Shown piece after piece: positions 2,109 to 56,543 of a DNA stretch of 64,000 bases. Source of the DNA: a bacterium (lineage in GTDB: Bacteria; Patescibacteriota; Minisyncoccia; Phycocordibacterales; Phycocordibacteraceae); assembly GCA_021836725.1 (NCBI GenBank), contig JAKBHL010000011.1:18210-82209 (forward strand). The letters run 5' to 3'. Both the position numbers and the translations under genes were made by a program. The notes under the pieces were generated by a model that saw nothing but the letters and a program-made list of their open reading frames with translations, did no database searches and was not told where the DNA came from. Each line of letters opens with the position of its first letter. The first letter of the stretch is position 1.

Positions 2109-2180
2109 GCCCTCGTCGTTCAACGGATAGGACACCGGCTTGCGGAGCCGGCAATAGAGGTTCGATTCCTCTCGAGGGCA
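2109..2180 (+). tRNA. tRNA-Arg(GCG), no encoded CCA
   Basis: Acceptor gccctcg/cgagggc with discriminator a, anticodon stem ccggc/gccgg, loop ttgcgga, T-arm agaggttcgattcctct. Confidence 0.7.
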
Positions 2181-2203
2181 CTAAAATGGCGAAGCACACT
2201 TTT

Positions 2204-2367
2204 GTGCCCTCGAAGCAGGCCGTCTGCACGGCCTGCGAGAGGAATCGAAAGGCGGAGCGATGTTTGGCCAGCAGGCGAAACCGCGAGCCCTGCCCAGATA
2301 AACTTTTGCGGCGGCAAAAGTTTAATCGAGGGAGATACGGCGTATTCGCCGGTCCTCTCGAGGGCAC
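2204..2367. repeat. tRNA-Arg-derived structured element: an inverted 3'-end copy with a GC hairpin insert, plus a direct 3'-end fragment
   Basis: 2206-2249 is the reverse complement of a tRNA 3' half (T-loop, T-stem 3' side, acceptor 3' side) with the hairpin gcaggccgtctgcacggcctgc (2215-2236) inserted between T-stem and acceptor. 2353-2367 (tcctctcgagggcac) repeats the tRNA 3' end directly. Further hairpins lie inside (cttttgcggcggcaaaag). Confidence 0.5.
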
Positions 2368-2379
2368 CCTGTACTTCTC

Positions 2380-11672: not shown

Positions 11673-12653
11673 ATGTCAACCCCTCCGCGAAAGTCCGAGC
11701 CCCTTCCCCAAGCGCTCGATGCTGCGCTCCGGCCGGCGCATTGGGATGACTATGTCGGTCAGAAACAGATAAAAGCGAATATACGCATCGCCATTGACGC
11801 CGCTAAAAAGCGCGGCGGGATGCCCGAGCATATCCTCTTCTACGGCCCGCCGGGAGTCGGGAAAACGACCCTTGCCCATCTTGTCGCCGCGACGCTCGGA
11901 TCCCAGCTCAAAAGCACCTCCGGAGTTGCCATAGAGCGTGCCGGAGATCTTGCGGCGATACTTACCGCTCTCGAACCGAATACGGTTCTTTTTATCGACG
12001 AGATTCACCGCCTCTCGCGCAAAATCGAGGAACTTCTCTACCCCGCGCTCGAGTCTGGGCATCTCGACATTGTGCTGGGGAAAGGTCCCTCGGCGCGTAC
12101 CGTCGAACTCGCGCTTCCGCCTTTCATGCTCATCGGCGCGACAACGCGCGTCGCGGAGCTGTCGGGCCCGCTGCGTTCCCGTTTCGGCGGCGGCGTGTAC
12201 CAGCTCGATTTTTACAGTGACGACGACTTGCGCGACATCATCCGCCGCTCGGCTCTCCTTCTGGAGCTTTCGGCTCCCGAGGAAGTCATTGAACGCATCG
12301 CGGCGCGCAGTCGCGCCACCCCCCGCGTCGCGAATGCGCTTCTGAAACGCGTGCGCGACTTTTCCGAAGTGCATGAGCGCGCGCTCTCCGCCGCGCTCTG
12401 CGATGAGGCATGTGCGCTTTTTGGCATTGATTCATGCGGGCTGACAAAAGATGACCGCCGCTATCTCCTTACGCTCGCCGAGGGTTTCCGCGGCGGCCCT
12501 GCGGGTATCCGCGCGCTCGCGGCTGCTTTGCATGAAGACCCCGACACGGTTGAGTACATGTACGAGCCTTTTTTGCTTCGACTTGGTTTTATCGAACGCT
12601 CCGCACGCGGCCGCGTGCTCACCTCAAAAGGCCGTTCCTATCTCCAAAACTGA
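11673..12653 (+). CDS. ruvB: Holliday junction DNA helicase RuvB
   Basis: HILFYGPPGVGKTTLAHLVA Walker A, LFIDEIHRL, sensor motifs. An extended -10 element tgtgatagaat sits at 11642-11652. Confidence 0.95.
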   Translation: MSTPPRKSEPLPQALDAALRPAHWDDYVGQKQIKANIRIAIDAAKKRGGMPEHILFYGPPGVGKTTLAHLVAATLGSQLKSTSGVAIERAGDLAAILTALEPNTVLFIDEIHRLSRKIEELLYPALESGHLDIVLGKGPSARTVELALPPFMLIGATTRVAELSGPLRSRFGGGVYQLDFYSDDDLRDIIRRSALLLELSAPEEVIERIAARSRATPRVANALLKRVRDFSEVHERALSAALCDEACALFGIDSCGLTKDDRRYLLTLAEGFRGGPAGIRALAAALHEDPDTVEYMYEPFLLRLGFIERSARGRVLTSKGRSYLQN

Positions 12654-12693
12654 CTCGCACCGCGCGGTGCTCCGTATTTGCTATAGTGCAGGC

Positions 12694-13251
12694 ATGTCAG
12701 GGCACAGCAAATGGTCTCAAATCAAGAGACAGAAATCGGCAACCGATGCGGCAAAAAGCCGGATTTTTGCGCGCTACGCGCGCCTGATAGCCCTTGAATC
12801 GAAAAAAGCCGCGGGAAATGCCTCGGCGCCATCCCTATCCGTTGCCATTTCCCGAGCAAAAGCGGCGAATATGCCGAAAGAAAATATAGAGCGGGCAGTG
12901 GCGAAAGGAATGGCAAAAGATTCCGGCGACTTTGAGCGGGTACTCTACGAAGCGTTCGGCCCGGGTGGCGCCGCACTGCTCATTGACGCGCTCACCGACA
13001 ACAAGAATCGTACGACGCAAGAGATAAAACACTTGCTTATAACGCATGGGGTCGAACTCTCCGCCCCGGGCGCGGCAAGCTGGGCTTTCAGCAAGACCTC
13101 GGACGGTTCCTATGCGCCGCATGAACCGTATGTCGATGTCGTCGGTCCCGATGAGGAACGGCTCGAGACCATCCTGACGGAGCTCGACGAACATGCCGAT
13201 GTGCAGAGGGTGTTTAGCAATGCGCGGGGTTATGAGAATACTGGCGATTGA
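12694..13251 (+). CDS. yebC: YebC/PmpR-family DNA-binding regulator
   Basis: MSGHSKWSQIKRQKSATDAAKS... is the canonical YebC N-terminus. Confidence 0.9.
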   Translation: MSGHSKWSQIKRQKSATDAAKSRIFARYARLIALESKKAAGNASAPSLSVAISRAKAANMPKENIERAVAKGMAKDSGDFERVLYEAFGPGGAALLIDALTDNKNRTTQEIKHLLITHGVELSAPGAASWAFSKTSDGSYAPHEPYVDVVGPDEERLETILTELDEHADVQRVFSNARGYENTGD

Positions 13252-13708: not shown

Positions 13709-13866
13709 ACCCATCTCAAACCCCCGCTCCCCCGCGAAGGGCATGCGGCAGAAAGAGGCTTACGGAGCGCGGCGGCGCGAGTACGAGCCGCTTTTTCAGC
13801 AGAAAAAGACGGCGTACTCCTTTCTGCCGCATGCCCTTCGCGGGGGTTTTGATTGTTCTAATCCAC
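13709..13866 (+). mobile_element. MITE-like palindromic repeat, copy A
   Basis: ccatctcaaaccccc...gggggttttgattg terminal inverted repeats with internal nested palindromes (gcgaagggcatgcggcagaaag...ctttctgccgcatgcccttcgc). Related copies lie at 29527, 45021, 49410 (partial) and 51088. Confidence 0.7.
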
Positions 13867-14111: not shown

Positions 14112-16271
14112 ATGGTCTCATTCCGGCATACATCATGGCGGCACGTTTTTTTGGCGATTACTCTCGCATTCTTCGGGCTCGGATTTCTTGCGGCGGGCGG
14201 TATCCTCATTGCCGTCATCCTTACGCCGGCGCCCGATATCGGCTCTTTCGCCGCGCGCCAGGTTGATCAGTCCACCAAGATTTACGATCGCACCGGCCAG
14301 GTATTGTTGTACGACTACAATCGGGACGCGAAACGGAATGTCGTCCCGCTTTCGGCCATAGCGCCGAATGCCATAAACGCGACCGTCGCGATCGAGGATT
14401 CGAGTTTTTACGAGCATGGGGCAATCCGCATCACGTCGATTATCCGCGCGATGCTTGCCGACATTTTCAGCGGTTCGCTTTCCCAGGGCGGTTCAACCAT
14501 CACGCAACAGGTTGTAAAAAACACTCTCCTCACCGATACGAAAAGCATCATCCGTAAGATACACGAGTTGGTGCTGGCGATAAAACTTGAACAGGTGTAT
14601 TCGAAAAACCAGATTTTGGCGACGTATCTTAACGATATACCGTACGGAGGAACGTTGTACGGCATTGATGCCGCTGCGGAAGCGTATTTCAATATCCCCG
14701 CAAAAGATCTTTCTCTGGCACAATCGGCGTATCTTGCGGCGATGATTCAAGCTCCGACGTATTACTCTCCGTACGGTACGCACCGCGCAGAACTCGATGC
14801 CCGGAAAAATCTTGTCCTTGAGCGGATGCATACGCTCGGTTTTATAGATACCGCCGCCTACACCGCGGCGAAGAACGAGGTGGTCTCTTTTGCTCCGGCA
14901 GGTCATAACTCGATCATTGCCCCGCATTTCGTCTTTTATATCCTCAATCAGCTCGAACAGACCTATGGACCGAACGCGCTCGTCTCGGGACTGAAGGTGA
15001 CGACGACCCTTGACGCGAATCTTGAGCTGCAGGCGGAATCGATCGTGCATCAGTATGCGCCGGGAAATGAAAAGGATTTCAAGGCCTCAAACGCTTCGTT
15101 GGTCGCTATTGATCCGCCCACGGGGCAAATACTGGCAATGGTCGGTTCGCGGAATTTTTTCGATACCAAGATTGACGGGCAGTTCAATTCCGCGCTCGCA
15201 TTGCGGCAACCCGGCTCAACGATGAAGCCCTTTATCTATGCGCTCGCCCTTATGAAGGGTTATACGCGCGATACGGTCGTATTTGATGTACCAACACAGT
15301 TTTCAACCGCTTGCCCGATTTCTGCAGTCACCGACAGCACTCCGCCCTGCTATGCGCCGGTCGATTATGACAACAGGTTCCGGGGGCCGATGACTTTCGA
15401 GACCGCCTTGGCCCAATCGATCAATGTTCCTGCGGTCAAAGTGCTGTATCTGGTCGGCATACAAAATGCCATCAACTTGGCAAAATCGTTCGGCTTGACC
15501 TCGCTTGGCGACCCGAATCAATACGGCCTTACCTTAGTGCTTGGCGGAGGCGAGGTGCGCCTTCTTGACCTTGTGGGCGCTTACGCGGCATTCGCTAATG
15601 ATGGCGTGAAGAATACGCCCACTGGCATCCTTGAGGTCGATAATTCGCAGGGACAGGTTCTTCAGAAATATACTCCTCAGCCGGTGCGTGTGATTCCGGC
15701 GCATATCGCGCGCGACATATCGGCGATGCTCTCGGATGCTCCCGCGCGCTTGCCGGAATATTCGCTTAATTCACCGCTTTCTTTCCCGGGATACGACGTT
15801 GCGGTTAAGACCGGTACGACCAATGATACGCGCGACGCATGGGTGATCGGTTATTCTCCTTCGATAGCGCTCGGCGTGTGGGCCGGCAATAACAACGATA
15901 CTCCTATGGTGAAGTCGATCGCGGGTTTCATTGCGGCACCAATGTGGCATGCGGCGATGGCGTACGCGCTTTCAAAATATCCGAAGATGTATTTCGGAGA
16001 ACCGGATCCTATCCCGGCCACCGTGCCTCCGATGCTCCAAGGGAATTGGCGCATACCGGATAAAAACGGCATGATCGTACCGCACAGCCTGTTGTACTGG
16101 GTCGATAAAAATAATCCGCTCGGACCGCCGCCTGTAAACCCTTCGAGTGACCCACAATTCGCGTACTGGGAGTACGGTATTTCGGCATGGTACGCTTCTC
16201 ATCCGAACGATTTCTCCGGCGGAGTCATGCTTCCGGTCCCCCTCTCGACCGCCGCAACGACCACGCCCTAA
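14112..16271 (+). CDS. mrcA: bifunctional class A penicillin-binding protein (transglycosylase/transpeptidase, PBP1A)
   Basis: TM anchor, a GT51 motif (GGSTITQQVVKN), transpeptidase SxxK (PGSTMKPF) and KTGT. Start chosen at the in-frame ATG 14112 rather than the track's TTG at 14046. Confidence 0.9.
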   Translation: MVSFRHTSWRHVFLAITLAFFGLGFLAAGGILIAVILTPAPDIGSFAARQVDQSTKIYDRTGQVLLYDYNRDAKRNVVPLSAIAPNAINATVAIEDSSFYEHGAIRITSIIRAMLADIFSGSLSQGGSTITQQVVKNTLLTDTKSIIRKIHELVLAIKLEQVYSKNQILATYLNDIPYGGTLYGIDAAAEAYFNIPAKDLSLAQSAYLAAMIQAPTYYSPYGTHRAELDARKNLVLERMHTLGFIDTAAYTAAKNEVVSFAPAGHNSIIAPHFVFYILNQLEQTYGPNALVSGLKVTTTLDANLELQAESIVHQYAPGNEKDFKASNASLVAIDPPTGQILAMVGSRNFFDTKIDGQFNSALALRQPGSTMKPFIYALALMKGYTRDTVVFDVPTQFSTACPISAVTDSTPPCYAPVDYDNRFRGPMTFETALAQSINVPAVKVLYLVGIQNAINLAKSFGLTSLGDPNQYGLTLVLGGGEVRLLDLVGAYAAFANDGVKNTPTGILEVDNSQGQVLQKYTPQPVRVIPAHIARDISAMLSDAPARLPEYSLNSPLSFPGYDVAVKTGTTNDTRDAWVIGYSPSIALGVWAGNNNDTPMVKSIAGFIAAPMWHAAMAYALSKYPKMYFGEPDPIPATVPPMLQGNWRIPDKNGMIVPHSLLYWVDKNNPLGPPPVNPSSDPQFAYWEYGISAWYASHPNDFSGGVMLPVPLSTAATTTP

Positions 16272-29526: not shown

Positions 29527-29712
29527 GGGCCGCTCCCCCGCTCGGGTATGCGACAGAAAGGAGTACGCCGTCTTTTTCTGCTCAAAAAGCGGCTCGTACT
29601 CGCGTCGTCACGCTCCGTAAGCCTCTTTCTGCCGCATACCTCTCGCGGGGAGAGGGTCACTCCTAAGCTGACATCTTAGGAGACGCATACCCGAGCGGGG
29701 ATTTGAAACGGA
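29527..29712 (-). mobile_element. MITE-like palindromic repeat, copy B (opposite orientation, right end extended)
   Basis: Reverse complement of the copy A/E core (gcgacagaaaggagtacgccgtctttttctgctcaaaaagcggctcgtactc...cctctttctgccgcatacc), ending ggggatttgaaacgg. Confidence 0.65.
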
Positions 29713-45020: not shown

Positions 45021-45170
45021 ACTCATTTCAAACTCCCCGCTCGGGTATGCGGCAGAAAGGAGTACGCCGTCTTTTTGTGCTCAAAAAGCGGCTCGTACTC
45101 GCGTCGTCACGCTCCGTAAGCCTCTTTCTGCCGCATACCTCTCGCGGAGATATGGGGTTTTGAAATGAGT
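45021..45170 (-). mobile_element. MITE-like palindromic repeat, copy C
   Basis: Terminal inverted repeats actcatttcaaactcccc / ggggttttgaaatgagt and a core about 95% identical to copy B. Confidence 0.7.
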
Positions 45171-48605: not shown

Positions 48606-48657
48606 GCCAATAAGACCAACGCTCGCCTGGCGATAAGGACTGCCGGCAGCTATGTGC

Positions 48658-48697
48658 GGAGAAAACCGCGGCACCCGAGGGTGCCGCGGTTTTCTCC
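48658..48697 (+). terminator. intrinsic terminator after hup
   Basis: ggagaaaaccgcggcaccc-gag-gggtgccgcggttttctcc, an 18-bp stem. Confidence 0.65.
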
Positions 48698-48747
48698 GCA
48701 AGGCGTCGCATTTGCTGAACCAACCATGCCACGCTACAATCGGAGCC

Positions 48748-49410
48748 ATGAACTATATTCGGAAAGTAGAAAATGCGAAAAAATTGATACGGGAATCGAT
48801 CGCTACCTATCCGAAAATCATTCTCGGTTCCTCTTTCGGCAAGGATTCGATGGTAACGTTGCATCTCACCTTGTCGGTAAAGCCCGATATCCCCGTATTC
48901 TCGGTCCTTGCCGACACAGAATTCCCGGAAACGTATGCATTTGCGGAAGAAATGGTCCGTAAATACGGATTGAATTACACGCCGTACGTATTCGAGCAGG
49001 TGCAAGGCAAGAAATGCTGCGGAGAGTCCAAAGTTGAAAAAACCAGGGAAGCCCTCAAGCCTTATGACGCCTGGATTTCCGGAGTAAGAAAAACGGAGGG
49101 CATCACCAGAGCCAATTTCAATCCGGTGGAAGAAAAAAACGGGCTGACAAAAATCAATCCGATACTCGAGTTCACGGAATTGGACATCTGGAGATATCTC
49201 GCACTCAATGAGGTTCCGGTAAATCCGAAATACAAAGAGGGTTACAGAAGTCTGGGGTGCAGCCTTTGTTCTTTCCCCGAAGAGGACGAATCCGAAAGTG
49301 AACGCGCGGGAAGGTGGAAAGGGACGACGGACGCCTGCGGCGAATGCGGCATCCATACGCAGCCCCTCAGGAACTCGTTTTCGGAGCCCAGGGAGGCACA
49401 GGTTGCATAG
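48748..49410 (+). CDS. PAPS-reductase-family (CysH/DndC-like PP-loop) protein; standalone, lower GC
   Basis: PP-loop ILGSSFGKDS and a C-terminal Cys cluster (CSLCSF...CGECG). It has its own promoter (TTGCTG - 17 nt - TACAAT, 48712-48740) and a leaderless-type start. GC is about 48%. Confidence 0.7.
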   Translation: MNYIRKVENAKKLIRESIATYPKIILGSSFGKDSMVTLHLTLSVKPDIPVFSVLADTEFPETYAFAEEMVRKYGLNYTPYVFEQVQGKKCCGESKVEKTREALKPYDAWISGVRKTEGITRANFNPVEEKNGLTKINPILEFTELDIWRYLALNEVPVNPKYKEGYRSLGCSLCSFPEEDESESERAGRWKGTTDACGECGIHTQPLRNSFSEPREAQVA

Positions 49411-49497
49411 CCTCTTTCTGCCGCATACCCCTCGCGTCACCCTGTAAATTATATGTTTAACATTTAATTACTCGCGTCGCCCTGGAGTTTTGAAATC
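49410..49497 (-). mobile_element. MITE-like repeat, partial copy D (one half only)
   Basis: cctctttctgccgcatacccctcgcg ... gagttttgaaatcg matches the right half and terminal inverted repeat of copies B/C. Confidence 0.5.
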
Positions 49498-49564
49498 GAA
49501 GCTTACAGCTTCAGTACACCTTGTGGATATTTTGCTTCAGGAAATCGCAAAATATGCTCACAAG

Positions 49565-49797
49565 GTTTTCGATTCTCCTACGCAGGCCTCCCAGGCCTGC
49601 TATCCCGCACAATTTCTCACCAGGTTCTAAATTGTGCGGGATAGGAGAACCGTGATTACACTTTCGGTCACGCATAATTTCTTGCTAGAAATTTGCGCGA
49701 CCCCGCCTCGCGCCGTCGCGCTCCGGCCTTCGATTCTCCGTGCAGGACGCGGAGCGTCCTGCACAATCCCGCACCTCCTCGCTAGAGGGCTCGTCGG
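49565..49797. repeat. tRNA-Gly 3'-end-derived inverted repeats with GC-hairpin inserts
   Basis: Plus-sense fragments at 49568-49614 and 49729-49777 have the form ttcgattctcc[hairpin]atcccgcac. The hairpins are gcaggcctcccaggcctgc and gtgcaggacgcggagcgtcctgcac. Each faces a minus-sense tRNA 3' end (49633-49649; the real tRNA at 49798) across a ~20-nt spacer. Confidence 0.6.
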
Positions 49798-49868
49798 TGC
49801 GGGATAGGAGAATCGAACTCCTGCTCTCAGTTTGGAAAACTGACGTTCTACCATTAAACTAATCCCGC
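49798..49868 (-). tRNA. tRNA-Gly(TCC), no encoded CCA
   Basis: Reverse complement gcgggat...tcagt-tttccaa-actga...aggagttcgattctcct-atcccgc-a. Confidence 0.85.
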
Positions 49869-49906
49869 CTAGAGCGAGAATACCATTTTTAGGATAGTGT
49901 AGTCAC

Positions 49907-51087: not shown

Positions 51088-51244
51088 CCATTTTCAACCC
51101 CCAATCTCCCCGCGAAGGGTATGCGGCAGAAAGAGGCTTACGGAGCGCGACGGCGTAAGTTCGAGCTGCTTTTAGAGCAGAAAAAGACAGCGTACTCCTT
51201 TCTGTCGCATACCCTTCGCGGGGGAAGCGAAGTTTTGAAATGGA
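51088..51244 (+). mobile_element. MITE-like palindromic repeat, copy E
   Basis: Terminal inverted repeats ccattttcaaccccc / gttttgaaatgg. The core is about 90% identical to copy A. Confidence 0.7.
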
Positions 51245-51784: not shown

Positions 51785-51936
51785 GACCTTTAGAAATACG
51801 GCTCATTTCCTAAGTATACTCTAGGGTCAATCATTTTTGTCATTACAGACAGGTGTCCTTTATCCCCATTGTGCACAGGTTTGTACACAGTTCAAAAATC
51901 GTTTTGTAATCACTATTTATTCGTCTTTTCCCTCGG

Positions 51937-52013: not shown

Positions 52014-52745
52014 TTATATACTCTCATAATATCCTTCGTTCATCAATTCCCCCGGGAATATCTTTAGCCACTCGAGCACTTTCTCTTTAAAATACGTACT
52101 GGAAACCGCGACGAGGCATACTCCCCACAGTAGCCGTTTAGTCTTATGCCGGCCGATGATTTGCGTGCATTTTGTAAAGTTCGATACCGGTAATCCTGAT
52201 GCTTCCGCCCAATACCGTACACACCTCTCTTTATTCAAATCAGGATACACGAGTATGTGTGCCCTGATTCTATCAATTGGAATTCGGCAGGCATGAGTTA
52301 AGAAGAAAACATATAATTTAATGAGTTGTGGATCAGTATTGGCGAGTCTTACACCGTTTCGTACTTGGCTCTTGTCGCCCTCTCCCCAATAGAGCATGAG
52401 GCCGGCGATAAAAAGAGGGTTGTGTTTCAGTTCTAGAAAGTCGTTTCTGGCCTCTTCTCGTGCCTCTTCATACGCGCGTTTGAGATGTGTTCCCCGTATT
52501 TTGTCCAGTTCAATTAATCGGACGATGTGTTGCTTTTGTACTGCGGCCGCTAATTTTTTGGCCATAGCATTTGACCAATCGATTTTACTGAACCAATCCG
52601 ACAAAGTTGCTTTCGGAATTTTCAGTGCGGCGTGTATCTCATTGTAGCTCTTTCCATTCCTACGCATATCGAAAGCAATTTCCTTGTCTTTTCGCATACA
52701 GTAATTATACCCCAATGAGGGTTCATTTATGGATAGCACACTCAA
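52014..52745 (-). CDS. free-standing homing-endonuclease-like protein (N-terminal HTH; LAGLIDADG-like motif); low GC
   Basis: 243-aa ORF. The N-terminus MRKDKEIAFDMRRNGKSYNEIHAALKIPKATLSDW is HTH-like, and ...NPLFIAGLMLYWGEGDKSQ... resembles a LAGLIDADG box. GC is about 44%. It is wedged between tRNA-Gly(GCC) and tRNA-Arg(TCG). Confidence 0.5.
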   Translation of the reverse strand: MSVLSINEPSLGYNYCMRKDKEIAFDMRRNGKSYNEIHAALKIPKATLSDWFSKIDWSNAMAKKLAAAVQKQHIVRLIELDKIRGTHLKRAYEEAREEARNDFLELKHNPLFIAGLMLYWGEGDKSQVRNGVRLANTDPQLIKLYVFFLTHACRIPIDRIRAHILVYPDLNKERCVRYWAEASGLPVSNFTKCTQIIGRHKTKRLLWGVCLVAVSSTYFKEKVLEWLKIFPGELMNEGYYESI

Positions 52746-55625: not shown

Positions 55626-56543
55626 CTACGCGCGATTTTTACCGTGATATTTCTTATGGATTTCGCGCAGATGCGTATCGGTGACATGAGTGTATATCTG
55701 GGTGGTATTGATCGAGGCGTGCCCGAGAAGCTGCTGGACAGAACGGATATCGGCGCCGTTGCTCAAAAGGTCGGTTGCAAAAGAATGGCGCAATACATGG
55801 GGCGTGACTTTTTTCGTGATCCCCGCTTTTGCCGCAGCGCGTTTGATGATACGTTCGATGGAACGAGGCGTAAGACGCGAAGGAATCTGGGTACCGGTTG
55901 GCATATTCACGAAGAGCGCGTCCGCCATATCCTTGCGCGCTTCGAGATAGGCGGCAATGGCGCTTCGAGCGGTATCGGAAAGGAAAACAACGCGCACTTT
56001 CTCGCCTTTGCCGCGTACCGAGAAGGAATCTCGCGTAAGATCAAGATCATTATCAAGCGCACAAAGTTCGGAAACGCGCAGCCCGGTTGAGAAAAGCGTC
56101 TCAAGTATCGCGGTATCGCGCAGATCCCTTTCCCCGACTCCCCGCGCGGATTTCAAGAGACGCTCAAGCTCAACGGGCGTTATGAGGTCGAGTTCACGCT
56201 CGGGGAGTTTTGCAAGCTCGATGCGTTCAGGAGAAATGCACTCGATCTCGCGCTTGCGCAAGAATTTTAGAAACGCACGAAGCGCGATCATGTAGTAATT
56301 CTGCGTTCGGCGCTTCATGCCGCCGCCGCCGGCACCCGGTTGGCGGTTCAGCCATTGGCGGAACTCGCGTATGTTCTGCTCGGTGATATCGGTGACTCTC
56401 GCAACGCCGGTCTGCGCGAAATAACGCGTCAGATAATGATCATAATTCTCGATGGTTTTCACCGCGCGCCCCCGCTCAATCTCGATGTATTCGAGAAATT
56501 GCCGTTTCGCAGCCTCAGCTTCCATCGAAACAGTATAACGCAC
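55626..56543 (-). CDS. xerC: tyrosine site-specific recombinase (XerC/XerD-like)
   Basis: N-terminal SAM-like domain (...YLTRYF...), catalytic RHxxR...Y (VTPHVLRHSFATDLL...IYTHV). The start may be at the downstream Met (56525). Confidence 0.85.
   Translation of the reverse strand: MRYTVSMEAEAAKRQFLEYIEIERGRAVKTIENYDHYLTRYFAQTGVARVTDITEQNIREFRQWLNRQPGAGGGGMKRRTQNYYMIALRAFLKFLRKREIECISPERIELAKLPERELDLITPVELERLLKSARGVGERDLRDTAILETLFSTGLRVSELCALDNDLDLTRDSFSVRGKGEKVRVVFLSDTARSAIAAYLEARKDMADALFVNMPTGTQIPSRLTPRSIERIIKRAAAKAGITKKVTPHVLRHSFATDLLSNGADIRSVQQLLGHASINTTQIYTHVTDTHLREIHKKYHGKNRA

Follow-up and report, generated by a model that had tools for sequence, protein, structure and literature searches.

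The elements e14 and phage 21 integrate at icd, in the 3' end of a protein gene, by means of tyrosine integrases. In Prochlorococcus, tRNA genes are reportedly hot spots flanked by cargo arrays with partial tRNA repeats between them; these tycheposons are said to be of kilobase scale with recombinases of their own, and neither an inverted target arm nor a structured core is reported to have been described for them. The bridge RNA of IS110 elements and the seekRNA of IS1111 elements are programmable guides, and the primer-binding site of retroviruses pairs with the 3' end of a tRNA. In the bridge RNA each of the two guide segments pairs with a different strand, and the duplication is limited to a 2-nt core (PMC11208158). 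Islander islands have a regenerated target gene and a displaced direct copy of its 3' fragment at the far end (PMC4383910). Finally, the attP(+) of the CTX phage is a folded single-stranded attachment site used by XerCD (PMC3442271, PMC3089051), and the attC sites of integrons are strand-specific folded recombination sites with a structure conserved beyond the sequence (PMC2727003, PMC2095811).

The window analysed here is a stretch of 64,000 nucleotides from a patescibacterial contig. Beside its tRNA-Gly(TCC) gene, a first-pass annotation had noted two plus-sense fragments that face minus-sense tRNA-Gly 3' ends, the second of these partners being the real tRNA. Both fragments are present, and ARAGORN and Rfam confirmed the intact tRNA at 49796-49868. 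We attribute these convergent pairs to the tRNA-proximal ends of two stacked, small insertion modules without ORFs, members of a non-autonomous, self-healing CPR family, an attribution to which we give an even chance of being right. The family is apparently undescribed. A module is about 110-190 nt long, contains no ORF and consists of a short conserved loop, an arm complementary to the target, a conserved core and a direct copy of the 3' part of the tRNA. The features at the tRNA-Gly(TCC) locus are the following:

48652-49410, plus strand: PAPS-reductase-domain gene (PF01507, E = 2.4e-38), outer end of the stack
49409-49495, minus strand: left end of a MITE copy (ATTTCAAAAC...CGCGAGGGGTATGCGGCAGAAAGAGGC), replacing the 3' end of module 2b
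49496-49633, minus strand: module 2b, 3'-truncated, in tandem with 2a
49496-49567, minus strand: module 2b core, type 2 (AACCTTGTGAGC...CACAAGGTGTACTGAAGCTGTAAGCTTCGA), aligned with 9 other type-2 units
49568-49610, minus strand: module 2b arm (inverted repeats I1, I2, I3)
49568-49580, minus strand: 2b arm, complement of T-stem and T-loop
49581-49600, minus strand: 2b arm, 20-nt GC hairpin GCAGGCCTGGGAGGCCTGCG
49601-49610, minus strand: 2b arm, complement of the acceptor strand
49611-49633, minus strand: module 2b loop (AATTTAGAACCTGGTGAGAAATT), a loop type also present in the relative L070
49634-49795, minus strand: module 2a, complete, in tandem with 2b beside tRNA-Gly(TCC)
49634-49649, minus strand: distal direct copy, tRNA positions 59-73 plus C (TTCTCCTATCCCGCAC), direct repeat family D1
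49650-49728, minus strand: module 2a core, type 1, four-way junction (covariance model, RNAalifold)
49729-49775, minus strand: module 2a arm (inverted repeats I7, I8, I10)
49729-49739, minus strand: 2a arm, complement of the T-stem 3' strand and T-loop
49740-49764, minus strand: 2a arm, 25-nt GC hairpin
49766-49775, minus strand: 2a arm, complement of the acceptor 3' strand
49776-49795, minus strand: module 2a loop (GACGAGCCCTCTAGCGAGGA)
49796-49817, minus strand: proximal (sense) target copy, tRNA-Gly(TCC) positions 54-73
49796-49868, minus strand: intact tRNA-Gly(TCC) (ARAGORN; Rfam RF00005, 72.8 bits)

The direct repeat D1 is exact over 16 nt between 49634-49649 and 49797-49812 and extends to 19 nt with one mismatch; the interval 49633-49649 first given for one of its copies is one base too long. 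Its comparison with attL/attR was apt in that the repeat marks both ends of an inserted element. The distal copy closes module 2a and doubles as the sense copy of 2b. The plus-sense sequences TTCGATTCTCC (49568-49578 and 49729-49739) and ATCCCGCAC (49601-49610 and 49766-49775) repeat the tRNA 3' end in inverted orientation; taken earlier for a second convergent att-like set, they represent the element's own target-complementary arm, the first plus-sense fragment being the arm of 2b and the second that of 2a. The GC hairpins, described at first as inserts, are not incidental either, but conserved parts of the family modules: locus 1, module 2b and many relatives all contain the hairpin AGCAGGCC...GGCCTGCG. 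Copies of TATCCCGCAC with no more than one mismatch number 11 in the window compared to 3.9 expected, and none of 100 shuffles reached 11. As single-stranded DNA the region is predicted to fold into two large forked hairpins (−91.8 kcal/mol; z = −12.6 for the tRNA-Gly region against 200 shuffles, none of which was as good), which correspond to the two large palindromes of the first-pass annotation. Sense copy, loop and arm together form a forked hairpin whose duplex part has the sequence of the tRNA 3' end. For module 2a, a fold energy of −85.1 kcal/mol was found (z = −8.9). Chance is excluded most strongly by the presence of the same architecture at 2182-2368 and at dozens of tRNAs in related genomes.

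Since the tRNA 3' end forms part of a long hairpin, the structure could be a non-mobile host feature of the tRNA operon, namely a terminator or a 3'-processing hairpin, and in the relatives L011, L075 and L189 the loop itself is a terminator. No terminator was called on the minus strand downstream of tRNA-Gly, however, and no T-run follows the hairpins in the window, whereas the other tRNAs of the window have ordinary terminators. In addition, most orthologous sites are empty, and modules also occur in a protein gene. This explanation is contradicted by the insertion polymorphism described below, and we find it hardly credible.

Comparison with locus 1, as had been proposed, revealed the same architecture there, with tRNA-Arg(GCG) as the source of the 3' end:

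2109-2181, plus strand: tRNA-Arg(GCG), the target at locus 1 (ARAGORN, Rfam)
2182-2368, plus strand: module built from the 3' end of tRNA-Arg(GCG)
2182-2202, plus strand: loop, containing GCGAAGC
2203-2249, plus strand: arm
2203-2213, within the arm: acceptor complement
2214-2236, within the arm: GC hairpin
2237-2249, within the arm: T complement
2250-2352, plus strand: core, diverged type 1
2353-2368, plus strand: distal copy TCCTCTCGAGGGCACC

Two different tRNAs among the eight of the window thus carry modules of the same anatomy, and each arm matches its own tRNA. Between the direct repeats lie 146-187 nt without an ORF.

The 2a core consists, in this order, of GGCCGGAGC, hairpin 1, GCGAGGCGGGGTCGCG, hairpin 2, CGTGACCGAAAG, hairpin 3 and GG. 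Its fold, a four-way junction, forms on the tRNA-sense strand only. RNAalifold yielded 22 pairs for the core, 14 of them with compensatory changes. One pair is an invariant G.U and a further one is either G.U or G-C; on the opposite strand these would become C.A mismatches. A covariance model, R1, was built from 30 cores. It recovered module 2a at 49641-49741 with 109.2 bits and E = 1.5e-31, 2a being one of its training sequences, and locus 1 over 2237-2360 with 38.2 bits and E = 8e-10. The 2b core is without hairpin 3 and without a distal copy, and a full-length relative of this type-2 core was found at tRNA-Arg(TCG) in L035. The loop carries a conserved GCGAAGC or GYGAG motif, and the motif ACGARC...GYGAGRA of the 2a loop is common to the relatives L035, L042, L038 and L226. 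Part of the core is shared by the genome-specific MITE of the window.

These features might also be expected of a family of structured non-coding RNA genes linked to tRNAs and co-transcribed with them, mobility being secondary. The closing helix of such RNAs would mimic the acceptor/T minihelix of the tRNA next to it, so that they would be excised by RNase P, RNase Z and the CCA-adding enzyme, and the four-way-junction core would act at the RNA level, in regulation, as a decoy or as a ribozyme. The strand-specific fold with its compensatory changes agrees with this, as does the predicted fold of the whole unit, with an acceptor-like helix, a side hairpin, a T-stem-like helix and a cloverleaf-like junction. 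Modules are always co-oriented with the tRNA and usually lie between tRNA and terminator. The invariant G.U pair and the GC-rich core, which stays GC-rich even within AT-rich genomes, are typical of functional RNAs and weigh against our preferred reading. On the other hand, of the 43 modules next to a tRNA, 9 have a terminator-like hairpin and T-run between tRNA and arm, in L230 the arm comes after the terminator of a protein gene, and related MITE copies point either way with respect to the genes around them. Selfish DNA is the better fit for the polymorphism, the arrays, the decayed copies and the truncated 2b. In Rfam, only the tRNAs reached the gathering threshold; over 49400-49900 the sole non-tRNA match at E ≤ 10 was a chance match to sar (13.6 bits, threshold 43). 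Hammerhead, HDV-like and twister ribozymes were considered and rejected, with neither core motifs by inspection nor an Rfam match. Altogether, an RNA gene family appears unlikely to us, although it retains some real chance.

With the covariance model and pattern scans, about 80 members were found in relatives among the Kaiserbacteria and in groundwater metagenomes, at a minimum of 19 target tRNA species; as far as seen, the family is confined to Patescibacteria (CPR). R1 gave two strong matches in the window; at a score of 30 bits or more it gave 19 matches in the 80 related loci and 56 in the 51 metagenome loci. For 55 of these 77 matches, a tRNA on the same strand lies at most 700 nt upstream, and most of the others are at contig ends. 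In some relatives the modules form tandem arrays, and decayed copies exist in addition to the truncated 2b. The tRNA-Gly(TCC) site is occupied in only about 11 of 50 related species, contrary to the refuting case named in the first-pass annotation, the same repeats everywhere with no insertion polymorphism; presence or absence varies at orthologous tRNA-Gly(TCC) and tRNA-Gly(GCC) sites. Ten contigs of close strains with the same proteins were 100% identical across the locus and hence uninformative on polymorphism. Neither an excised form nor an empty/filled pair within one population was seen. In viral contigs, all 91 pattern matches were due to chance and none matched the element HMM, and phage and plasmid collections contained no match to the module. 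GC skew over the 64 kb gave no orientation of the locus relative to replication.

The first-pass annotation had regarded the direct repeats as scars of an integrated element of which about 130 bp were left. In that case attL and attR would stem from a once-large, integrase-borne island, and the inverted copies would be debris. Direct repeats of a tRNA 3' end are indeed the classical signature of tRNA islands (PMC4383910), and accessory genes are near, both at this locus (PAPS reductase) and in the ORF-bearing relatives L055 and L080. The interval, however, is about 146 bp long and a complete member of a conserved small family, which scores 109 bits, has a covarying structure and recurs at similar length in about 80 cases at 19 tRNA species. 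Independent decay would not converge on one structured core of 100 nt. The census thus contradicts island scars, which we consider very improbable. What stands of the proposed degraded integration hot spot is the hot spot, given the stack of 2a, 2b, MITE and PAPS-reductase gene, and not the decay of a larger element.

The two junctions of the modules differ in precision. On the right the core ends with GACC, directly followed by G57 of the T-loop, and this junction always lies after (G)TTC of the T-loop, or after GCAC in topA. The left junction is variable, with duplications of 12-83 nt at tRNAs and about 100 nt at the protein gene. A direct repeat with an intact tRNA was also found in 27 relatives (median 17 nt). 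Duplications include locus-specific trailers and terminators, as in L085 (55 nt), L055, L202 and L229, and the direct copy spans the target from the T-loop to past the gene end. Hairpins lie near both module ends. The gene is kept intact by the proximal copy, and later insertions stack beside the tRNA. As to whether the distal copy is brought by the element or made in place, pairing of the two copies with the tRNA 5' strand gave no information, since in most cases they do not differ and it is always the functional one that pairs better.

Across the insertion point, the arm is the complement of the uninterrupted target, reaching from T54 to the end of the acceptor plus a few trailer bases; the conserved GC hairpin often divides it. 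Its T-loop complement follows the TTCGATT, TCCGATT and TTCAATT variants of the target. In 22 of 43 modules the five bases ahead of the T-loop complement are a perfect match to the module's own T-stem, compared to 0.7% of non-cognate pairings, and an acceptor complement is present in 19 of 43 compared to 6.7%. Two origins of the arm were rejected. In L231, where the acceptor stem contains a G.U pair, the arm is the complement of the 3' strand, so it was not copied directly from the 5' acceptor strand of the tRNA. An origin by snap-back copying is excluded by L187 and L230, in which the arm complements the first bases of the duplication, some 90 nt away from the loop, and is further countered by the conserved GC hairpin inside the arm. 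Roughly one arm in two is cognate in part only: a generic arm is common to eight tRNA-Glu elements, and the two tRNA-Arg(TCT) elements are almost armless, so that the arm cannot be strictly required in every case. Near-identical cores at different tRNAs within one contig or metagenome (L229, L196) call for either frequent retargeting or homogenisation of cores by recombination. Frequent retargeting would also have to preserve the internal GC hairpin, a difficulty for the mobile-module reading. The different origin of arms and distal copies in L229 and L055 indicates that recombination between copies blurs the record.

Two modules, in L187 and L230, are located in the 3' end of a topoisomerase-like (topA-like) gene. 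There, about 100 nt are duplicated in such a way that the ORF stays open, and the arm, 13 nt long, is the complement of the first part of the duplication and spans the breakpoint. Species-specific repeat tails and different core subtypes show that the two insertions are independent.

An arm that complements the undivided target on both sides of the breakpoint, as seen at tRNAs and at the protein gene, would also be expected if the modules carried a guide for an RNA- or DNA-guided recombinase or a retroelement. The arm would then be a programmable guide or a primer-binding site for the tRNA 3' end, and the variable duplication would arise from target-primed synthesis. The hairpin-split arm superficially resembles the two guide segments in the loops of bridge RNA, and one precise and one variable junction with duplications of 12 to about 100 nt are expected for polymerase-dependent insertion. 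Yet, unlike in the bridge RNA (PMC11208158), one and the same strand is complemented by both arm segments and the duplication measures 12-100 nt, no IS110-type, TnpB-type or reverse-transcriptase ORF was found in or beside the modules examined, and the tRNA-Glu and tRNA-Arg(TCT) arms are non-cognate. We judge this explanation to be quite unlikely.

According to the mobile-module reading, the module would be a non-autonomous element with one DNA strand of the T-loop as its point of entry. Re-synthesis or replacement of the gene's 3' part would render the insertion harmless (self-healing). The active form would be a folded single strand, more probably DNA than RNA, and pairing of arm and target may help to select the site, as with the folded attP(+) of the CTX phage or the attC of integrons. 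The chemistry would be done by a recombinase or nickase encoded elsewhere. More specifically, integration may be guided by nucleic acid, the arm picking the site in a tRNA T-loop or, now and then, in the 3' end of a protein gene, a structure-specific enzyme acting in trans joining one strand at an exact position and target-primed synthesis rebuilding the 3' end; this we propose tentatively, as a course less likely than not.

The failure to find a mobilising enzyme near the modules examined counts against the mobile-module reading. There is no recombinase inside the module and no integrase beside any target tRNA examined, and among 126 ORFs within 1.5 kb of elements no partner enzyme recurs. 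The ORFs inspected near elements, only seven of which were scanned against Pfam, included no TnpA gene. Single, scattered finds near elements comprise a fragment of a large serine recombinase, an IS630-like DDE gene, an HNH gene and LAGLIDADG genes near tRNA-Ile, which we assume to belong to introns of rRNA operons. In the window, a XerD-like gene (55626-56543) lies 6 kb away and is syntenic in near-identical strains with listed gene calls. The ORF at 52014-52745, a candidate LAGLIDADG enzyme by its motif IAGLMLYWGEGDK, was not confirmed by Pfam and PDB sequence searches.

On the outer side of the locus, a partial MITE copy and a PAPS-reductase-like gene had been noted, and both were confirmed, the former at 49409-49436. 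Module 2b, on which 2a is stacked, is interrupted by the MITE copy, and that copy is in turn cut off at the stop codon of the PAPS-reductase gene. A tblastn search found this gene in none of 80 related RNase Y loci, in line with the earlier suspicion that it is not core; it is accessory cargo. Among the ORF-bearing versions of the module, the cargo of L055 is a C39-like peptidase.

Compared to the systems outlined above, the modules share with the islands of tyrosine integrases the insertion in the 3' half of a gene, the regeneration of that gene, the direct 3' fragment at the far end and the stacking of cargo by repeated use of one tRNA. Unlike these islands, they measure 110-190 nt, have neither an integrase nor any other ORF, and contain an inverted target copy beside the regenerated end as well as a core conserved as a single-strand fold; their duplications range from 12 to about 100 nt and include locus-specific trailers. 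As in attP(+) of the CTX phage, two inverted target-like copies make up a forked hairpin resembling the target duplex, the integrated order is site, element, inverted copy, loop and site, and the CTX enzyme likewise acts in trans. The targets, however, are the T-loops and 3' ends of many tRNAs and a protein gene instead of dif, and there is no phage genome. With integrons the modules have in common a strand-specific covarying fold, of the attC kind if it acts as DNA, hairpin structure conserved above sequence, and the stacking of units, some with an ORF (L055), beside a fixed site. They differ in that there is no intI/attI platform, R''/R' boxes (RYYYAAC/GTTRRRY) were not found by inspection, the closing helix is the target's own sequence, and modules are dispersed over many tRNA genes.

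MITEs and the palindrome-associated elements derived from IS200/IS605 are similarly small, non-coding, multi-copy and hairpin-rich, with the enzyme in trans. Unlike in MITEs, the "terminal inverted repeat" of the modules, made up of arm and distal copy, is derived from the target and differs among 19 tRNA species, the duplication is long and variable instead of a fixed short target-site duplication, and insertion repairs the gene. IS200/IS605 elements have subterminal hairpins and insert 3' of a 4-5-nt motif without duplication; the modules are comparable in the hairpins near both ends and in the constant position of the right junction, whereas their duplication is long. Like the IS110 bridge RNA and the IS1111 seekRNA, the modules hold a target-complementary sequence split by a stem-loop inside the element; unlike IS110, they have no DEDD/Tnp recombinase gene and duplicate at least 12 nt. 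The tRNA hot spots, arrays and partial tRNA repeats reported for tycheposons are similar as well.

CPR bacteria have tiny genomes with single-copy tRNA genes. Even so, on some of the contigs examined several tRNA genes carry modules (up to all three of one contig), some of them arrayed, which makes the modules a noticeable, apparently unrecognised component of these genomes. They are also likely to cause wrong annotations and assemblies that break off at long palindromes. The four-way-junction core is a good candidate for a new Rfam-type family. If guided self-healing integration holds true, insertion into essential single-copy genes would be free of cost to the host, and if the arm really directs insertion, the modules would constitute a natural system for placing DNA at chosen sites within essential genes that nevertheless stay functional, of interest for mobile-element biology and genome engineering. 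Finally, the stacks are landing pads for accessory genes, such as those for the PAPS reductase and the C39-like peptidase, and would hence be one route of gene gain for the streamlined genomes of the CPR.

The tRNA-Gly(TCC) site, locus 2, carries two small ORF-less insertion units, here called modules, of which 2a is complete and 2b is truncated at its 3' end. The layout of repeats, inverted repeats and hairpins described in the first-pass annotation was recovered by a repeat finder, and the region folded far better than shuffled sequences (z = −12.6). Its parts, and the target of the related module at locus 1, are as follows.

49796-49868, minus: tRNA-Gly(TCC)
49795-49776, minus: module 2a loop, 20 nt, the first part 3' of the tRNA
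49775-49766, minus: module 2a acceptor complement, exactly complementary to the acceptor 3' strand
49764-49740, minus: module 2a GC hairpin, perfect, 25 nt
49739-49729, minus: module 2a T complement (T-stem 3' strand and entire T-loop)
49728-49650, minus: module 2a core, 79 nt of conserved sequence
49649-49634, minus: module 2a distal direct copy, 16 nt (tRNA positions 59-73 plus C)
49633-49611, minus: module 2b loop, beginning directly after 2a
49610-49601, minus: module 2b acceptor complement
49600-49581, minus: module 2b GC hairpin, 20 nt
49580-49568, minus: module 2b T complement
49567-49496, minus: module 2b core, 72 nt, unlike the 2a core
2109-2181: tRNA-Arg(GCG), target of the locus-1 module

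Locus 1 (2182-2368) shows the parts in the order of locus 2 (loop, arm with GC hairpin, core, direct copy), made from Arg sequence. Since the two loci can be aligned beyond their tRNA-derived parts (GGAGCG..., ...AAAGTnTAATC), they are relatives and not coincidences.

A scan of 80 loci syntenic at RNase Y in related species (1.25 Mb with 160 tRNAs) revealed the same architecture at about 17 more tRNAs (Gly-TCC, Gly-GCC, Arg-TCG, Pro-TGG). Orthologous sites were mostly empty; the tRNA-Gly(TCC) site was filled in about 11 of 50 species, with a similar occupancy pattern at tRNA-Gly(GCC), and close strains were identical at locus 2. A 25-base core pattern retrieved 51 metagenome contigs, some of high and some of low GC content, all except one or two being genuine members (L200 is an apparent chance match; L-numbers denote these contigs and the 80 related loci). 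R1, a covariance model of the type-1 core built from 30 cores, gave 109 and 38 bits for the window copies, the former being 2a, itself one of the 30, and matches of at least 30 bits numbered 19 in the related loci and 56 in the metagenome loci. For 55 of 77 R1 hits a same-strand tRNA lay at most 700 nt upstream, the remainder being mostly at contig ends, and the targets comprised 19 tRNA species. Nothing comparable was found in Rfam, IMG/VR, phage collections or plasmid collections, and a literature search returned no description of such elements.

The cores fall into three types. Type 1 (module 2a and locus 1) consists of GGCCGGAGC, hairpin 1, GCGAGGCGGGGTCGCG, hairpin 2, CGTGACCGAAAG, hairpin 3 and GG; type 2 includes module 2b, with ten distinct units altogether, and type 3 occurs in L080, L085, L055 and L059. 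RNAalifold on 30 type-1 cores predicted 22 pairs, 14 of them with double compensatory changes. One pair was G.U in all 30 sequences and the adjacent one G.U or G-C; on the opposite strand these would be C.A mismatches, and we therefore attribute the fold to the tRNA-sense strand. Whole unit 2a has a fold energy of −85 kcal/mol (z = −8.9). Its predicted fold comprises a helix of 9 bp that reproduces the acceptor stem, the GC hairpin where the acceptor and T parts meet, a helix resembling the T-stem and lengthened by pairing of the conserved GG with the start of the T-loop complement, and a four-way junction.

The arm was compared with its target in 43 tRNA-adjacent modules. The five bases preceding the T-loop complement were fully complementary to the module's own T-stem in 22, versus 0.7% of non-cognate pairings, and an acceptor complement was present in 19, versus 6.7%. 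The T-loop complement tracks the target variants TCCGATT and TTCAATT. The acceptor stem of L231 contains a G.U pair, and there the arm complements the 3' strand and does not repeat the 5' strand sequence, so that it is a true inverted copy. Other arms are not local: one generic arm is common to eight tRNA-Glu modules, an arm is nearly absent from Arg(TCT) modules, the arms of L194 and L213 match a different Gly(GCC) allele, and the Gly(TCC) site of L055 bears a Gly(GCC)-type arm. L229 (1229-1500 and 3464-3900, plus) has near-identical cores at two tRNA-Ala genes of one contig, with a distal copy of Ala(CGC) type and a duplicated loop-plus-arm in the Ala(GGC) module, which speaks for recombination or template switching among copies. 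It follows that the arm is largely element-borne and that copies recombine with one another.

One junction is precise. In forms without hairpin 3 (tRNA-Ala, Pro and, in L038, Gly) the core end GTGACC directly abuts T-loop G57 (GAAACCCC..., GATTCCCGG...). The arm end is constant at the complement of T54, three bases left of this junction. The other junction is variable, with duplications of 12-83 nt (median 17, n = 27) which may take in a locus-specific trailer or an entire terminator (L085, 55 nt; L055, L202, L229). Two type-1 modules lie within the 3' end of a zinc-finger ORF that resembles topoisomerase.

L187 5043-5135, minus: type-1 module
L230 3130-3259, minus: type-1 module

The target is therefore not restricted to tRNA. 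Here about 100 nt of coding sequence and the stop codon are directly duplicated, and the ORF is intact, reading through the proximal copy; mismatches in the distal copy amount to about 10% for L187 and, within the gene part, about 5% for L230. Species-specific repeat tails and differing core subtypes point to independent insertions at the same site. The 13-nt arm (AATAGTTTTTGTG) complements the start of the duplicated segment, spanning the breakpoint (CAC|AAAAACTATT). This start lies about 90 nt away from the loop, which rules out fold-back copying at the loop as the origin of the arm; by the same comparison, tRNA sites look palindromic because only a short segment is duplicated there. Insertion is self-healing, the 3' end being restored in whichever gene is hit.

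Module 2b, which lacks hairpin 3 and a distal copy, meets the left end of a MITE at 49495. This MITE copy ends at 49409, where it is cut by the stop codon of a PAPS-reductase gene.

13725-13850, plus: full MITE copy
29535-29650, minus: full MITE copy
45043-45147, minus: full MITE copy
51108-51224, plus: full MITE copy
49409-49436: partial MITE copy
48652-49410, plus: low-GC gene with PAPS_reduct domain, between the HU gene and tRNA-Gly(TCC)

The MITE is genome-specific, with four full copies in the window versus none in the 80 related loci. It measures about 125 nt, not counting outer ATTTCAAAAC/GTTTTGAAAT flanks, and has terminal inverted repeats of 27 bp. Homology links its interior (ACGGAGCGCGRCGGCGCGAGT...TTTTTCAGCAGAAAAA...GCGTACTC) with the type-1 core of the modules at tRNAs, with covariance model scores of 15.6-17.7 bits and blastn matches in L220, L187 and L216; the core module can thus move with arms other than tRNA-derived ones as well. 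The PAPS-reductase gene, which bounds the insertion stack on its outer side, had no homologue in the 80 related RNase Y loci and is therefore accessory cargo. Of the degraded integration hot spot proposed in the first-pass annotation, the hot spot stands on this absence, whereas only 2b and the MITE fragment are degraded.

Other features were noted nearby and in relatives. In most relatives about 40 nt separate tRNA-Arg(TCG) from tRNA-Gly(GCC); in the window a 243-aa ORF (52014-52745, minus) lies between the two. Only 5 of 81 loci have this ORF at that position, and a weak HTH domain was its sole Pfam detection. Its motif IAGLMLYWGEGDK resembles LAGLIDADG, an assignment that Pfam and PDB sequence searches did not confirm. 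Conserved DnaA-box-like repeats (TGTGGATAA, TGGGGATAAAGGACA) lie downstream of tRNA-Gly(GCC) in many of L012-L087, and at about 51840-51900 in the window (TCCTTTATCCCCA); the region may be a replication origin or DnaA-regulated. Core-less hairpins downstream of tRNA-Gly(GCC) (L015 ~15000-15087, L043 ~12630-12722, also L045 and L022), with acceptor complement and acceptor copy around only 4-6 nt (GTGCGGGTATGG GCATTT CCATACACGCAC), may be remnants of core loss, or else a minimal module form. ORF-bearing versions have a C39-like peptidase gene between tRNA-Gly(TCC) and module (L055 8400-9420, minus) or a 263-aa ORF between two tRNA 3' repeat copies downstream of the module (L080 19440-20500, minus). 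In L074 (~12380-12431, minus) a second, partial tRNA-Gly of a different allele, running from the anticodon arm to the 3' end, follows tRNA-Gly(TCC), a pattern classically marking replacement by integrating elements. In a single case, L210, the C-terminal part of a large serine recombinase (309-1118, minus; Recombinase and Zn_ribbon_recom domains) adjoins an element array, whose final distal tRNA copy is cut off there.

A mechanism must fit one precise and one variable junction, long variable in-place duplications, a fold confined to one strand, complementarity of the arm to the intact site, the lack of an ORF and stacking beside the tRNA. These data are best fitted by a non-autonomous element that would enter a nick after C56 in folded, single-stranded form, the downstream gene part then being re-synthesised from the free 3' end. 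Alternatively, a single-stranded element might bring along a copy of the gene end and take part in a one-strand exchange, for which CTX phage with XerCD (PMC3442271) and integron cassettes via attC (PMC2727003) are precedents. No candidate enzyme emerged among 126 ORFs neighbouring the elements. Loops such as GCGAAGC form unusually stable DNA mini-hairpins, and a terminator separates tRNA and arm in 9 of 43 cases; on these grounds we lean towards DNA rather than RNA as the active form. We could not find a mechanism that jointly explains the near-identical cores at many tRNAs and the preserved internal GC hairpin. The cores may stem from target-specific lineages homogenised by recombination, for which L229 provides direct evidence, or from a retargeting step.

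Classical tRNA-integrating islands share the regenerated gene and displaced fragment with the module, which however lacks an integrase. CTX attP(+) has a target-mimicking hairpin as well, but the module target is not dif, and attC resembles the module in stacking and in a strand-specific fold, predicted for the module, whereas integron platform and R boxes are absent here. MITEs are alike in size and copy number, unlike the module in their constant inverted repeats and fixed duplication. The IS110 bridge RNA (PMC11208158) also has a split target-complementary sequence, but its strand geometry and 2-nt duplication are not matched. The modules are therefore best filed as a new form of small non-autonomous site-specific elements, with a modest but real probability that the underlying mechanism is new in kind.
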